Source: Candidatus Omnitrophota bacterium (GTDB taxonomy: Bacteria; Omnitrophota; Gorgyraeia; Gygaellales; JAMWDD01). From it: DNA of 64,000 bases. The stretch's first letter is position 1; every line of letters begins with the position of its first letter. The stretch lies in contig JAQUNK010000004.1 in NCBI GenBank assembly GCA_028717645.1, positions 16,349-80,348 of the forward strand, written 5' to 3'. Of this stretch, positions 15,670 to 25,488 are shown in pieces. The position numbers and the translations under genes were made by a program. The notes beneath the pieces were generated by a model. It searched no databases, was not told the DNA's origin, and was given only the letters and a program-made list of their open reading frames with translations.

Positions 15670-16182
15670 CTAGGCGCATAAGATTTCCTGCAAAGACAAG
15701 GAAATCGCTCCTGCTGCCCTCGCCGCTTCAGGAGAAACCGGCTCTCCGAACTTCAGCGTCTTTGGCTGGATGCCGATCACGACGAACTCGCAGCGTAAAG
15801 AACTTTTTAGGTAATCGATCAATATCTTGGTGGGAAGCCTGTGTGTGGAGAATGAAACGCCGTTGATCTCTTCTTCTTCAATCAGGCGCGCCTCGCCGGC
15901 GCTTTTTTCCAATTGCGCCGCATCGACGATGATCACATGCGTCGGGTTAAATTTTTTTATTTCACCGGTAAAATTCTCCGGGCTTGCGCCGGCCAAAAAA
16001 CATTTGATCCGGGAGTTTTCGCCAGCTGCCTTTTGTAATTCCCGCGCAACGAGCATGCCGACCGCGTCATCCGCCCTTAGTTCCGAGCCGATGCCAAGCA
16101 CCGCCGCCCGGGAAGTATTCTTTAATTTATTTTTCAGTTGGTTTTTCAGGTTCTGCATTTGGTTTTTCAGGCTCCGCATCAA
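15670..16182 (-). CDS. [NiFe] hydrogenase maturation endopeptidase (HycI/HybD family); the annotated start overlaps the upstream gene and the true start is uncertain
   Basis: AAVLGIGSELRADDAVG, the typical family core. The N-terminal KNQ-repeat region overlaps the 3' end of the preceding ferredoxin gene. Confidence 0.7.
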   Translation of the reverse strand: MMRSLKNQMQNLKNQLKNKLKNTSRAAVLGIGSELRADDAVGMLVARELQKAAGENSRIKCFLAGASPENFTGEIKKFNPTHVIIVDAAQLEKSAGEARLIEEEEINGVSFSTHRLPTKILIDYLKSSLRCEFVVIGIQPKTLKFGEPVSPEAARAAGAISLSLQEILCA

Positions 16183-16606
16183 GGATAACTTTTAATTTAC
16201 CGCGGTCAGTCGAGGCAAGTTCAAAATCTTTGCTATACTCCAGGGCCTTTTTAATGCAGGAATCAACGCACTGCGCGCAATAAATACATTTACCCAGGTC
16301 TATTTCGGCTTCAAATTGTTTCTCGCCGATCTTTTTTATGTTTATCGCACCCGTCGGGCAATCGCGCATGCACATCTTACAACCGATACAACGGGAAGGA
16401 TGAAAAATAATCTTGCCCCGGAAACCCTTGGGCATGCCGCTTTTTTCCTTCTCAAAAGGATAATGCGTGGTCACCGGCTTCTTGAACAATGAACTTAAGA
16501 CCTGGCGTAGGACCTTGCCTCTTTTTTTCATTTTACCATTACCCCTTTGGCGATCAAATTCAGCAATACCTGTAAAAACGCCAGCGGTGCTAAATATTTC
16601 CAGCAT
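16127..16606 (-). CDS. NuoI-like 2x[4Fe-4S] ferredoxin subunit of the hydrogenase/complex-I-like module
   Basis: CIGCKMCMRDCP and CIYCAQCVDSC motifs. The C-terminal tail ends with a PEKPNAEPEKPTEK repeat. Confidence 0.8.
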   Translation of the reverse strand: MLEIFSTAGVFTGIAEFDRQRGNGKMKKRGKVLRQVLSSLFKKPVTTHYPFEKEKSGMPKGFRGKIIFHPSRCIGCKMCMRDCPTGAINIKKIGEKQFEAEIDLGKCIYCAQCVDSCIKKALEYSKDFELASTDRGKLKVILDAEPEKPNAEPEKPTEK

Positions 16607-22222: not shown

Positions 22223-24049
22223 CTATTTAACCATGAATGCCAGCGCGACCGCGGCACTCACCAGCGACCAAACAATATAGACGACATAATTACCCGTCTG
22301 TAACAATGCGAGTGCGCGCGAGGCCAAAAACGCCGTGCCGGCTAAAAAACCATCATAGAGCCAGTCGATAATGCGGTCTATGGCCATCAAAAGCAAGGAT
22401 GCGATATGAACAACCTTCATTCCTACTTCATAAGGATCGAACCATTTTCTTTCCGCAGCCTGATATATTGTCCCAAGGACCGGCGCATGATGGATGTGTT
22501 CCGAGGCCTTTAAGCCGCTGCCCGCGGCCTTAGCGGCGATCAAATGGTGGATTAATGCAGCGATCAAAACAACTATGGTCGTCAGGGTAAGCCAGGCGTT
22601 AGCCGGGAAACCGCTGAAGTTGTGCCCTTCTAATCTGGCATGGCCCAAAATCGGCTGAATAAACTTTTCAATGGGCAATTGGTTATAGACCCCGAATAAA
22701 ATACACAAAAAGGCGATCACGGCCATCGGCACCAGCATTCCCAGCGGCGCTTCTTTTACGCGCCGGTTTTCCTGGCTTGCCTTGCCGCAAAATGCGGCAT
22801 GCCCCAATTTTAAGAATGATGCCGCGGTGAAGAATGAGCCGATGAGTGCAGCAAGATAAAATATTTTTCCTCTTTCCAGTGCGCCGTCGTAAATAAGTTC
22901 TTTTGAGAAAAATCCGTTAAACGGAGGTACACCCGAAATAGAAAGCGCAGTGATCACAAAACAGGCAAAGGTAATCGGCATCTGCTTCCAGAGGCCGCCC
23001 AATCTTTCCAAGTCTGTGGTACCCGCCTGCTTTTCTACTGAACCTGCGGTAAAGAAAAGGCAGGATTTATAAAGCGCGTTATTGACCATGTGGAAGATGC
23101 CGCCGATGATGCCGGCAGGCACGCAGGTACCGATACCGAGGATCATATACCCCACCTGGCTGATAGCGTGATAAGAAAGCAACCTTTTATATTCCTTCTG
23201 CACCAGGGCCATCATTACCGCCAAAATGATCGTGGCCGCGCCGATGGTCATCATGGTAATACTTATCCACGAACCGGCGGAAAGCTTGAACATCTCCAGG
23301 GTTATGCGGGATAAGAAATATATGCCCAATAATTTTTCTAATGCTGCCGGCATCAACGCCATAAAAGGAAGCGGCGCGTCGGTGGCGGCACTGGGGATCC
23401 AACTATGGAAAGGCATGGAACCGCCCTTGGCGATCGCTCCGATCATCAGTAAGACGAAGGCAATGCTTGCCAGGGGAGTGAGTTCAAGGTGTATCTGGGA
23501 AATGGTCAGGGTCGAAGCAAGGTAACCGGTAATGGCAAGGCCGCCCATCATACACAAGTCAGATATACCCACGATAATAAATGCCTTAGTGGCAGTCTTA
23601 AAAGCATTTTTGTTGCCGATGGCGATCATGCCGAATATCGCCAGTAAGATGCCTTCCCAGAAAAAAAGCATAAAAATAAGGTTATTCGCCAGTACCGCGG
23701 CATTGGTACAAACCAGGATAATCAGCAGATAAAAATAAAATTGTTTGGGATGGTCCTTTCCGCGCATGGAAACGACGGAATATAATGCGGTGAGAAAAGC
23801 AAAAAGCGAAGCGAAAAGAACGATGAAGCCGCTAAAACGGTCGAGGCGAAGAGACAGATCAATGCCATGGCCTATCCAGGGAAGAATAAAAGAGATCTCT
23901 TTACCGAAAAGTTGTACGCTGATTGCCAGGGTAGCGGCGGTAGCCACTAAGGTAAGTGCTTCTTTCAGGCCGCGGGGCTTTCCCCGGGTCGCTAGAATCA
24001 GCACTGCTGCAACCAACGGTATAAATATAGGTAAGATTAAAATACTCAT
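22223..24049 (-). CDS. Antiporter-like subunit (NuoL/MrpA family, long form)
   Basis: 608 aa with …HSWIPSAATDAPLPFMALMPAA… and a C-terminal extension consistent with the NuoL lateral helix. Confidence 0.8.
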   Translation of the reverse strand: MSILILPIFIPLVAAVLILATRGKPRGLKEALTLVATAATLAISVQLFGKEISFILPWIGHGIDLSLRLDRFSGFIVLFASLFAFLTALYSVVSMRGKDHPKQFYFYLLIILVCTNAAVLANNLIFMLFFWEGILLAIFGMIAIGNKNAFKTATKAFIIVGISDLCMMGGLAITGYLASTLTISQIHLELTPLASIAFVLLMIGAIAKGGSMPFHSWIPSAATDAPLPFMALMPAALEKLLGIYFLSRITLEMFKLSAGSWISITMMTIGAATIILAVMMALVQKEYKRLLSYHAISQVGYMILGIGTCVPAGIIGGIFHMVNNALYKSCLFFTAGSVEKQAGTTDLERLGGLWKQMPITFACFVITALSISGVPPFNGFFSKELIYDGALERGKIFYLAALIGSFFTAASFLKLGHAAFCGKASQENRRVKEAPLGMLVPMAVIAFLCILFGVYNQLPIEKFIQPILGHARLEGHNFSGFPANAWLTLTTIVVLIAALIHHLIAAKAAGSGLKASEHIHHAPVLGTIYQAAERKWFDPYEVGMKVVHIASLLLMAIDRIIDWLYDGFLAGTAFLASRALALLQTGNYVVYIVWSLVSAAVALAFMVK

Positions 24050-25488
24050 TTTATTAATGCGATCTGCTGCACTATTGTCCCAACCACTTTATCCGGATAA
24101 TAAATAAATATGCCAGCGGCTAAAGAAAGAAAAGCCAGGAGTGCCACGCAAAATACCATTACCGGCTCGCCTTCTTTTACCGGCTCTGTTTTCGGTTCGC
24201 CTAAAAATACCAGATTAAAGGCGCGGAAAAGATAAAGTATGGTCATTACCGCACCCACCAAAAAAGTAAAGGCAATAAGGAGATTCCCGCTGTTAAAAGC
24301 TCCAGCCATCACCATGTATTTGCTGAAGAATCCACCAAGGGGCGGGATACCCATTACAGAAAAGGCACACAAAATGAACGCGGCCGCGGTGAGCGGCATA
24401 GTCTGGATGAGGCCTCCCAGCCGGGTGATGTCCCTGACCTTGGTTTTTTGCTCGATAATACCCGCGCACAAGAAAAGCCCTGCCTTGGCCAGGCCGTGCA
24501 TCAAAATATATAAAAGCCCTCCGGCCAGGCCAATGATATTGCCGATAGAAAGCCCTAAAAAGATAAAGGCGATCTGGCTCACTGTGGAATAAGCGATGAC
24601 CCTTTTCAGGTCCGTTTCAATTAGTGCCGCACCCGCGCTAACCAAGGCGCTCGCGCCGCAGATAAGTGGTATAGCCGTATGCCAAAATTGCTCCACATTC
24701 AATGTCGCCACGAAGAGGCGCGCGTAAACATAGACGCCGATCTTCACCAGTACTGCCGCATGCAGGAGTGCGGTGACCGGAGAAGGCGCCACGCCGGCAT
24801 CCGGCAACCAGGTATGGAACGGCAGGGTCGCGGACTTGGATAAAATACCCGCCATAATCAGGGCAACTGCCAGGCTTGAGGCCGCCTGCATTTTTAAACC
24901 GTCTTTGATCACCAACAGGTCAAATGAACCAGTCTGCTGATAGAGATTGATGAAGCCCAAAAGCATGACCAACGCGCCGAATACGGTGACCAGGAATGCC
25001 TTGTCTGCCTTAAGCACGTGGTTCTTTTCCCGGAAAAATCCAATCAGGCGCCAGCTGACTATGGCCGTGGCCTCCCAGAATAAATAAAGAAAGATCAGGT
25101 TCGCCGAAAAGACCAGGCCAAGCATCGAACCCAGGAACAAAACCACCATAAAATAGTATTCGTTCTGGTCGTCGTAATGGCTGATGTAGCCAAAAGAATA
25201 AAGCACGACTATGGCGCTGACCAGGCTTGAGACCAGGCTCATAAAGACCGCCAGTCCGTCGGCATATAAAACAAAATTAAAACCCAGAGGAAGGAATTTG
25301 GTAAAGATAATGGTCTTTCCGGCCAGGACGCCGGGCAGGATAATTAAGGAAAGTAAAAATGACGCAGCAACAAAAGCGAGTGCCAGATGATTTCTAAAAT
25401 TCTTAGAGATCCTTCCGGCAATCGGCAGAAAAAACGAGCCTAATATCGGGATAAAAACTGTGAGTAGAAGTAGGTTTGTCTGCATCAC
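24046..25488 (-). CDS. Antiporter-like subunit (NuoN/NuoM/MrpD family)
   Basis: 480 aa, polytopic, with …FHTWLPDAGVAPSPVTALLHAA…. Confidence 0.8.
   Translation of the reverse strand: MMQTNLLLLTVFIPILGSFFLPIAGRISKNFRNHLALAFVAASFLLSLIILPGVLAGKTIIFTKFLPLGFNFVLYADGLAVFMSLVSSLVSAIVVLYSFGYISHYDDQNEYYFMVVLFLGSMLGLVFSANLIFLYLFWEATAIVSWRLIGFFREKNHVLKADKAFLVTVFGALVMLLGFINLYQQTGSFDLLVIKDGLKMQAASSLAVALIMAGILSKSATLPFHTWLPDAGVAPSPVTALLHAAVLVKIGVYVYARLFVATLNVEQFWHTAIPLICGASALVSAGAALIETDLKRVIAYSTVSQIAFIFLGLSIGNIIGLAGGLLYILMHGLAKAGLFLCAGIIEQKTKVRDITRLGGLIQTMPLTAAAFILCAFSVMGIPPLGGFFSKYMVMAGAFNSGNLLIAFTFLVGAVMTILYLFRAFNLVFLGEPKTEPVKEGEPVMVFCVALLAFLSLAAGIFIYYPDKVVGTIVQQIALIK

Follow-up and report, generated by a model that had tools for sequence, protein, structure and literature searches.

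We analysed a 64,000-nucleotide (nt) stretch of DNA from a Candidatus Omnitrophota bacterium (contig JAQUNK010000004.1, positions 16,349 to 80,348 of the forward strand; this whole stretch is called the window below). Its minus strand carries 12 co-directional genes at 15670–25488, which are closely packed or overlap (Table 1). They probably form an operon for an eleven-subunit energy-converting group 4 [NiFe] hydrogenase with its own HycI-type protease, and the enzyme would oxidise ferredoxin and pump protons through a complex-I-type membrane arm. We observed directly which subunits are encoded, their metal-ligand motifs and conserved charged residues, the protease gene and the recurrence of the operon across phyla. 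By sequence, the locus appears to be that of a group 4 enzyme, as it combines nickel-binding motifs, a short NuoB-like subunit, NuoH-, NuoI- and NuoC-like and antiporter genes, and a C-terminal tail together with HycI.

Families were assigned by Pfam and NCBIfam searches. One genome per species was scanned for related loci, which gave 480 confirmed relatives; the best 80 loci (L001 to L080) were kept for comparison, and motifs were counted in an alignment of the 80 orthologues.

Catalytic subunits and membrane arm

The large subunit carries both nickel-binding cysteine pairs, one in the L1 motif RVCGICSHAH (residues 65–74; C67 and C70) and one in the L2 motif DPCFSCTDR (residues 355–363; C357 and C360). 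The 48 residues after Arg363 align with the tail that is cleaved from Escherichia coli HycE. Both pairs were present in 80/80 orthologous large subunits, which were 69–78% identical to that of the window, and nearly all of the orthologues had tails of 35–50 residues. The last gene of the operon passed the TIGR00142 hycI equivalog model (130.7 bits; cut-off, 119.1), and its product is predicted to remove the tail of the large subunit. An earlier preliminary description of the window had noted the cysteine pairs, the extension and the endopeptidase, and all three were confirmed.

Among solved structures, the closest relatives of the large subunit were Pyrococcus furiosus MbhL (E = 3.5e-95, 43% identity) and E. 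coli HycE (1.7e-83), with the NuoD/Nqo4 chains of complex I trailing at 6e-63 or weaker. Identity to E. coli proteins was 38% for HycE and 27.6% for NuoCD. When the sequence was aligned with E. coli NuoCD, the NiFe-ligand motifs faced other residues, and the C-terminus of NuoD read DFVMSDVDR, with no Cys. The NCBIfam model for NuoD narrowly missed its cut-off (345.7 bits; cut-off, 360).

The small subunit has GACNAC, a hydrogenase-type GxCxxC motif, in place of the tandem CC (SCC) of NuoB. Its Cys26, Cys29, Cys93 and Cys123 align with the ligands of HycG/HyfI and are predicted to hold a single proximal [4Fe-4S] cluster. It was 43% identical to HyfI/HycG and 38% identical to NuoB, and it passed a NuoB subfamily model of NCBIfam. 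The NuoI-like subunit matched NCBIfam models of the NuoI/HycF type, all below their cut-offs, and was 35% identical to HycF. The invariant cysteine pairs, the GxCxxC motif of the small subunit and the HycE-like tail with HycI agree with the earlier proposal that the enzyme is a hydrogenase rather than a quinone reductase.

The suggestion that the large subunit is an intermediate towards NuoD was rejected. We examined its 150 closest representatives, at 50% identity clustering, in a library of 1.8 billion proteins. All full-length ones carried the nickel motifs, and E. coli NuoD was far more distant than HycE or MbhL. The catalytic subunit is thus of the typical group 4 kind.

Two of the related loci contain further homologues. 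In L063, a planctomycete metagenome-assembled genome (MAG), a true Cys-less nuoB-C-D set (17187–19756) lies about 4 kb downstream of the hydrogenase operon; the two are thus distinct paralogues. In L016, a neighbouring paralogous cluster on the opposite strand (18066–21211) encodes an Ehr-like large-subunit homologue without the nickel-binding Cys.

All three antiporter-like subunits keep the Glu of transmembrane helix (TM) 5 and the Lys of TM7, TM8 and TM12. These residues are E139/K218/K249/K390 in subunit 1, E132/K208/K239/K383 in subunit 2 and E130/K212/K243/K385 in subunit 3, and subunit 2 also has equivalents of NuoL D178 and K399/D400. These four Glu/Lys residues define the proton-translocating subunits NuoL/M/N and MrpA/D, and by this pattern all three subunits are apparently proton-competent. 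Their scores against MrpA/MrpD and against NuoL/M/N were similar. Subunit 1 best matched NuoL, the N-terminal part of MrpA and HyfD (E. coli HyfD, 194 bits; NuoL, 191 bits). The three genes had been called NuoN-, NuoL- and NuoM-like. Three PF00361 subunits are indeed present, but the labels are nominal, and the first gene is best described as NuoL/HyfD/MrpA-N.

The second of these subunits, of 608 amino acids (aa), is NuoL-like up to its C-terminus. The NCBIfam NuoL model covers residues 2–607 of 608, and mycobacterial NuoL aligns to residues 55–604. A profile of the last ~150 residues, compared with E. coli references, gave a weak match to the C-terminus of HyfB and no match to NuoL, NuoA or the ND3-like tail of HycC.

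Among PDB chains, the NuoH-like anchor matched MbhM (130.7 bits), NdhA (123.7), Nqo8 (116.4) and HycD (86.4). The 103-aa protein matched NdhE (1.2e-9), MbsG/MbhG (about 3e-7) and Nqo11 (6e-5), and both membrane glutamates, E38 and E71, could be read from its sequence.

The 113- and 160-aa proteins were compared with known subunits by family profiles and by single-chain structure models. The models were of moderate quality (predicted local distance difference test score of about 69), and the Foldseek E-values were all >0.6. In the family profile of the 160-aa protein, the first 80 residues matched MbsD (4e-10) and MbhD (1.5e-8), both DUF4040, residues 7–110 matched E. coli NuoJ (5e-4), and the C-terminus weakly matched MbsE. 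Its model has five helices, with an invariant Glu54 in TM3. Most of its top Foldseek matches were ND6/NuoJ/NdhG chains, and MrpA and MbhD were also among them; none was significant. We read this protein as an unsplit, single-chain NuoJ equivalent that seems nearer in sequence to the Mbh/Mrp branch. It had been described as NuoJ-like. A five-helix, single-chain NuoJ equivalent is consistent with that label, but the sequence is closer to MbhD/MbsD than to NuoJ. MbhD is a homologue of TM1–3 of NuoJ, and the MbhD/MbsD match therefore qualifies the label and does not refute it.

The profile of the 113-aa family matched ND3/NuoA over its full length (E = 0.005–0.05) and MbhI at its N-terminus only (E = 0.56), in line with the NuoA-like label given previously. 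The model has three TM helices and a long loop between TM1 and TM2. An invariant Y-x-C-G-E corresponds in the alignment to the motif Y-E-C-G-F of the ND3 loop. ND3/NuoA chains made up many of the top Foldseek matches (E > 1), a suggestive but non-significant result. Many homologues are named subunit A by JGI and "hypothetical" by NCBI.

All eleven core positions of complex I (NuoA, B, C, D, H, I, J, K, L, M and N) are thus filled, NuoA weakly and NuoJ barely above the Pfam cut-off. No NuoE/F/G-like gene was found in the cluster, and every open reading frame (ORF) of at least 400 aa in the 64-kb window falls in other families, which bears out the reported lack of this module. Pfam and NCBIfam searches found no MrpE/F/G- or MbhF-like gene among the 12 genes or the other annotated genes of the window, and the operon had none at the 80 loci; MrpE/F/G did not recur in the flanks of these loci either. 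With three antiporter-like subunits that have the key residues, and with no MrpE/F/G, the set of subunits resembles that of complex I more than those of Mbh or Ech, as had been proposed.

Operon conservation and gene neighbourhood

The order antiporter ×3-J-K-A-B-C-D-H-I-HycI was identical at every locus of sufficient length among the 80 relatives, and no extra gene was inserted within the operon at any of the 80 loci. This recurrence indicates that the 12-gene set is more than a chance arrangement. The synteny search in related genomes that had been recommended thus returned a uniform answer, and the family assignments agree with the reported order of J, K, A, B, C, large subunit, H and I. 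The hosts of the 80 loci are Omnitrophota, Phycisphaerae/Sedimentisphaerales and other Planctomycetota, Spirochaetota, Margulisiibacteriota, Kiritimatiellae, Elusimicrobiota and others.

The relatives include the complete genome of Candidatus Velamenicoccus archaeovorus LiM (L059), in which the large subunit is 72% identical to that of the window and the 12 genes have the same order. The enzymes of V. archaeovorus LiM and of other Omnitrophota have been assigned to group 4g by HydDB (PMC10066038; PMC8542988). By proxy of this orthologue, the window enzyme would also belong to HydDB group 4g.

The flanking genes within 6 kb of the operon were counted at the same loci. A membrane pyrophosphatase was found in 24/80. 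F1Fo ATP synthase genes (a, alpha/beta, gamma, b, delta, c) were near the operon at about 10 of the 80, almost always downstream, and ExbB/ExbD-like pairs at 8–9 of the 80. The pyrophosphatase, ATP synthase and ExbB/ExbD genes together give the appearance of an ion-gradient neighbourhood that recurs around the operon. No formate dehydrogenase, CO dehydrogenase (CODH) or other fixed partner recurred within this distance across the 80 loci, and no formate dehydrogenase or CODH partner was present in the operon or among the annotated genes of the window.

Table 1 Features of the hydrogenase locus and its surroundings in the window.
Feature	Position	Strand	Details
Sigma-70-like promoter candidate	25557–25584	−	TTGACA, 16 nt with TG, TAATAT; 97-nt gap upstream of first gene
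Leader hairpin, GATGTCTTCTAG-ctagaaa-CTAGAAGACAT then T8	25489–25528	−	Perfect stem of 12–15 base pairs; ends 1–4 nt before start codon
Antiporter-like subunit 1	24046–25488	−	480 aa; PF00361 (7e-72) and PF00662 (Proton_antipo_N)
Antiporter-like subunit 2, NuoL-like	22223–24049	−	608 aa; PF00361; C-terminal extension of ~150 aa
Antiporter-like subunit 3, NuoM/NuoN/MrpD-like	20781–22211	−	476 aa; PF00361 (9e-63); NCBIfam
NuoJ equivalent	20302–20784	−	160 aa; PF00499, 34.9 bits (cut-off, 33.2)
NuoK/MbhG/MrpC equivalent	19994–20305	−	103 aa; PF00420 (4e-17)
NuoA/ND3-like protein	19649–19990	−	113 aa; PF00507 (E = 4e-4, below cut-off)
Small subunit, NuoB/MbhJ/HycG-like	19176–19628	−	150 aa; PF01058 (1e-30)
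NuoC/MbhK-like subunit, separate from large subunit	18701–19207	−	168 aa as listed; PF00329 (3e-22)
[NiFe] large subunit	17473–18708	−	411 aa; PF00346 and PF00374
NuoH/MbhM-like membrane anchor	16528–17469	−	313 aa; PF00146 (1e-74)
NuoI/MbhN-like subunit, 2×[4Fe-4S]	16127–16606	−	159 aa as listed; Fer4 families
HycI-type maturation endopeptidase	15670–16182	−	170 aa; PF01750 (7e-16); TIGR00142
Membrane-integral pyrophosphatase (neighbour, not a subunit)	13525–15621	−	PF03030 (6e-270)
Rex	11499–12128		~1.4 kb beyond pyrophosphatase

As listed, the ORFs of the NuoI-like, NuoC-like and HycI genes extend 79, 32 and 55 nt, respectively, into the genes before them. Internal starts would give the usual junctions of 1–8 nt, so that 159 and 168 aa probably exceed the true lengths. 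The real starts are likely ATG 16531 for the NuoI-like gene (134 aa) and GTG 19171 for the NuoC-like gene.

The pyrophosphatase next to the operon passed both the NCBIfam "sodium-translocating" model (958.5 bits; cut-off, 894) and the H+ V-PPase model (808.8; cut-off, 651.9), and its GNTTAA (Ala) signature is the one seen in K+-dependent enzymes. By these features it may pump either H+ or Na+. The preliminary description had placed an H+-pumping pyrophosphatase immediately downstream; the gene is there, but both sets of models were passed and its ion may equally be Na+. The metabolic genes of the window include those for acetate kinase, phosphotransacetylase, three 2-oxoacid:ferredoxin oxidoreductase subunits and a flavodoxin, a combination typical of fermenters that produce reduced ferredoxin and acetate.

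The promoter candidate matches the consensus at 10 of 12 positions and has an extended −10 element, by consensus match only. The stem sequence and T-run of the leader hairpin recur 45–131 nt upstream of the operon in 7/54 related loci (L001, L003, L013, L018, L034, L056 and L069). These seven hairpins follow a different upstream gene each, show one compensatory change in the stem and have variable loops. Rfam contained no family for the hairpin, the only match being a sub-threshold one to a small RNA (E = 0.5). The hairpin is shaped like a terminator, yet it lies between the promoter and the gene, so it may act as an attenuator or operator.

The gene for Rex lies beyond the pyrophosphatase gene, as reported earlier. 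We searched for the Rex operator TTGTGAA-N6-TTCACAA with up to 3 mismatches. There was none near the operon, and one distant match equals the chance expectation. This search thus gave no support for a link between rex and the hydrogenase operon. At 9779–12128, rex is followed in the same direction by genes for a 369-aa NapH/MauN-type membrane polyferredoxin and a DsbD_2-family membrane protein.

Several other features of the window were recorded. Directly upstream of the operon (25586–34649) lies a cobalamin-related run, which looks like a B12 salvage and uptake cluster. It encodes a TonB-dependent receptor, a Diphthami_syn_2 ATPase, a FecCD/periplasmic-binding/ABC ATPase transporter and a CobA/CobO adenosyltransferase, together with CobS-, CobT-, CobU- and CobC-like ORFs that were named by eye from their translations. 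An AbiU2-type HEPN protein of an abortive-infection family is encoded at 8821–9498, in the stretch of lowest GC content (8001–10000; 0.41 vs ~0.48). Three ORFs (220, 232 and 341 aa) at 43681–45142 and 49913–50938 had no Pfam match at E ≤ 1e-5, and the 341-aa ORF has a LUD-domain gene on one side and the 2-oxoacid:ferredoxin oxidoreductase genes on the other.

Electron transfer, energetics and alternative explanations

In the mechanism that we propose, 2-oxoacid:ferredoxin oxidoreductases would generate reduced ferredoxin (or flavodoxin) in acetate fermentation. Reduced ferredoxin would pass its electrons to the NuoI-like 2×[4Fe-4S] subunit, the probable entry point, and the single [4Fe-4S] cluster of the small subunit would relay them to the NiFe site, where protons would be reduced to H2. 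The NuoH-like anchor and the NuoA/NuoJ/NuoK-type module would couple this redox step to the three antiporter-like subunits, and the export of protons would build a membrane potential for ATP synthase. The whole would resemble complex I without its NADH module, with H+ instead of quinone as the electron acceptor. Ferredoxin as donor, H2 evolution as the direction, H+ as the ion that is coupled and the stoichiometry of pumping are our inferences. Given the gene neighbourhood, with no recurrent partner enzyme, the direct donor would be ferredoxin, as in Mbh, and the role of the enzyme chemiosmotic. Ferredoxin-dependent H2 evolution has likewise been inferred for the homologous Omnitrophota enzyme in studies of MAGs (PMC8542988; PMC10066038).

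Several points weigh against this interpretation. One is the energy available, which we calculated for ferredoxin at −500 mV, a H2 partial pressure of 1 to 1e-5 atm and a membrane potential of 120 or 180 mV. Electron transfer from ferredoxin to H+ yields only about 17–45 kJ per H2, which permits at most about 1.4–3.9 H+ per H2 at 120 mV and 1–2.6 H+ at 180 mV. A complex-I-like 4 H+/2e− would thus be barely possible, as it is feasible only at very low H2 together with low membrane potential. The shortfall may mean a lower stoichiometry than the architecture implies, operation at very low H2, or reverse running in some hosts. A comparable energetic puzzle surrounds E. coli Hyf. The other points concern the enzyme itself. 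The assignment of the 113-aa protein to NuoA is weak, given the Pfam score below the cut-off, a profile E of about 0.005 and Foldseek E > 1. An invariant His76 occupies the position of the TM2 Asp of NuoA/ND3, and the following Glu is also absent; this would be a family-specific change in a putative coupling region. The extension of the 608-aa subunit is likely a NuoL-type lateral helix with a terminal TM helix, but we infer both this and the order of the subunits in the membrane, and the structure models cover single chains only. No hyp maturation gene lies within the window. To our knowledge, no enzyme of this clade has ever been purified or studied biochemically.

Alternatively, the enzyme may run in reverse, with the membrane potential driving H2 oxidation and ferredoxin reduction to supply low-potential electrons for CO2 fixation. 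Ech runs in the uptake direction in some methanogens and acetogens, and group 4 enzymes such as Ech and formate hydrogenlyase (FHL) are reversible. Three antiporter modules look oversized for the energy of the ferredoxin-to-H+ reaction, a high H+/2e− ratio would be advantageous in the uptake direction, and the adjoining ion-pumping pyrophosphatase could provide the gradient. Many Omnitrophota with 4g enzymes are also predicted to be acetogens, and their Wood-Ljungdahl pathways are partial or full (PMC10066038). However, the genes of the window (ackA, pta and 2-oxoacid:ferredoxin oxidoreductase) are fermentative and include none of the Wood-Ljungdahl pathway, the literature infers H2 evolution for the homologues, and the frequent linkage to ATP synthase suits a gradient generator at least equally well. 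We consider uptake as the main function unlikely. The coupling ion is a separate question, because part of the membrane arm could be a Na+/H+ antiporter or Na+ pump that builds a sodium gradient, as in Mbh. Williams et al. termed the Omnitrophota 4g enzyme Mrp-linked (PMC8542988). The similar scores of the antiporter-like subunits against Mrp and Nuo proteins, the closeness of the large subunit and anchor to Mbh among solved structures, and the NCBIfam models named sodium-translocating that the neighbouring pyrophosphatase passes are all compatible with sodium coupling. On the other hand, the name "sodium" is generic for that pyrophosphatase family, and the H+ model was passed as well. In Mbh, Mbs and Mrp, MrpE/F/G-MbhA/B/C and MbhF make up the path proposed for Na+ (PMC8165549); the operon encodes none of these subunits at any of the 80 loci, and none is among the annotated genes of the window. 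Sodium coupling is therefore quite improbable in our judgement.

The partner of the hydrogenase could also be encoded elsewhere, in which case the enzyme would be a formate- or CO-linked hydrogenlyase, of the FHL/Hyf or the CODH-linked 4b/4c type. E. coli Hyf likewise has three antiporter-like subunits, HyfB, HyfD and HyfF rank high among the matches in E. coli, and the tail and protease are HycE/HycI-like. Yet the operon is without a connecting ferredoxin subunit of the HycB/HyfA type, the large subunit is not fused to NuoC as in HycE/HyfG, and neither formate dehydrogenase nor CODH recurs within 6 kb at the 80 loci. We hold such a hydrogenlyase to be very unlikely. Finally, the locus could be an eleven-subunit complex I, a quinone oxidoreductase with ferredoxin or another donor, that has been misread as a hydrogenase. 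Several subunits are annotated as Nuo in public records, the large subunit falls just under the NuoD cut-off, and the small subunit passes a NuoB subfamily model. Against this, the orthologues invariably have the nickel-binding Cys pairs, the cleavable tail and HycI, the corresponding C-terminus of NuoD is Cys-less, the nearest relatives are all nickel-binding, and L063 bears a separate Cys-less nuoBCD. The nickel ligands, the tail, HycI and this distinct paralogue refute a quinone-reducing complex I at the sequence level, and the chance that it applies is minimal.

For the family as a whole, we suggest tentatively, as a possibility and not as the expected outcome, a working hydrogenase with a complete complex I membrane arm (H, A, J, K, three antiporters and a NuoL-type lateral helix) and no sodium module. 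Complex I is thought to have descended from membrane-bound hydrogenases, and the characterised hydrogenases known to us (Ech, FHL and Mbh) all have truncated or otherwise arranged membrane arms. The present family retains the NiFe site and apparently all seven membrane subunits of complex I, and it is very highly conserved, its large subunit being at least 70% identical in six or more phyla of anaerobes. If the suggestion holds, the proton-pumping arm with its four channels would have arisen on an enzyme that reduces protons, either earlier than the change to quinone or independently of it. Coupling of the complex I type would then work on a driving force three- to ten-fold below that of NADH-to-quinone transfer, in an experimentally tractable enzyme, which would have to be reversible or have a H+/2e− ratio that is low or variable. 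With this arrangement the family would be a natural test of how many protons are pumped on a very small redox span, and a better model than Mbh for the step from hydrogenase to complex I. Much of the H2 production and energy conservation of the abundant uncultured bacteria of sediment and groundwater (such as Omnitrophota and Phycisphaerae) would then probably run through this enzyme. Otherwise it is one more uncharacterised group 4g enzyme.

Comparison with known systems

Group 4g is a loosely clustered class of uncharacterised function, found polyphyletic in a 2026 study, and its other clades, such as the Ech2-type clusters of Thermoanaerobacter kivui, have a different and smaller architecture. 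The label therefore says little about this clade. The preliminary description would have given way to a clean HydDB placement in a well-described subgroup of identical architecture; 4g, assigned here by proxy, is not a well-described subgroup. In studies of MAGs, the homologues have been named "group 4g, Mrp-linked Mbh" (PMC8542988) or "4g NiFe membrane-bound hydrogenase" (PMC10066038), and similar enzymes of Elusimicrobia have been labelled "Mbh-Mrp type". We found no description of the subunit architecture of this clade in the openly accessible full-text literature.

P. furiosus Mbh (14 subunits, group 4d, PDB 6CFW) is the closest solved system for the large subunit and the anchor. As in the window operon, its NuoC homologue and large subunit are separate and there is no partner dehydrogenase, for which reason ferredoxin is the likely donor here too. 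In contrast to Mbh, the window operon is without MbhA/B/C/F and encodes three antiporter-like subunits instead of one (MbhH). Its NuoJ equivalent is a single chain, whereas Mbh has a split MbhD and MbhE, and a full three-TM NuoA/ND3-like protein stands at the position of MbhI. The order J-K-A-B-C-D-H-I is collinear with mbhD/E-G-I-J-K-L-M-N, and B-C-D-H-I is the order of nuo once EFG is removed. The earlier statement that the gene order matches neither nuo nor mbh was thus overstated, although the order of nuo as a whole does differ.

The operon has one homologue for each subunit of the eleven-subunit complex I (NuoABCDHIJKLMN), including three antiporter-like subunits with the canonical Glu/Lys. 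The similarity extends to the 608-aa subunit, which is NuoL-like to its C-terminus, to the NuoK glutamates, to the TM3 Glu of NuoJ and to the Y-x-C-G of the ND3 loop. Unlike in complex I, the protein at the NuoD position is nickel-binding and has a cleavable tail, the small subunit has CxxC and not CC, a His replaces the TM2 Asp of NuoA, and the gene order is different.

E. coli Hyf (FHL-2, group 4a) shares the three antiporter-like subunits, and Hyf and Hyc (FHL-1, PDB 7Z0S) share the HycE-like tail with HycI cleavage after Arg. They differ from the window operon, which is without HyfA/HycB and formate dehydrogenase, in which NuoC is unfused and in which the NuoA- and NuoJ-like proteins are separate. 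In HycC, an ND3-like segment is fused to the antiporter subunit (PMC9474812). Ech (group 4e) is a six-subunit complex with one short antiporter-like subunit, in contrast to the eleven structural genes and three antiporter-like subunits found here. Ehr has lost the nickel-binding cysteines, which are invariant in the present large subunit. By these sequence comparisons, the clade appears to fall outside the definitions of Mbh (4d), Ech (4e), FHL/Hyf (4a), Ehr and complex I, and to fit group 4, with 4g by proxy.

According to a 2011 survey, NuoA and NuoJ seem absent from every hydrogenase (PMC3144371). A 2021 review gave Mbh a single antiporter-like subunit and Mbs two, with three being confined to NDH and complex I (PMC8165549). 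The complex-I-like hydrogenases of Heimdallarchaeia (4j–4q; preprint 10.1101/2024.07.04.601786) are, by their description, nickel-binding with a predicted architecture approaching complex I. They have fewer antiporter-like subunits than complex I, whereas the bacterial family of the window has all three. The concept of a complex-I-like hydrogenase is thus not new, and the bacterial eleven-subunit form appears to have been catalogued but not described.

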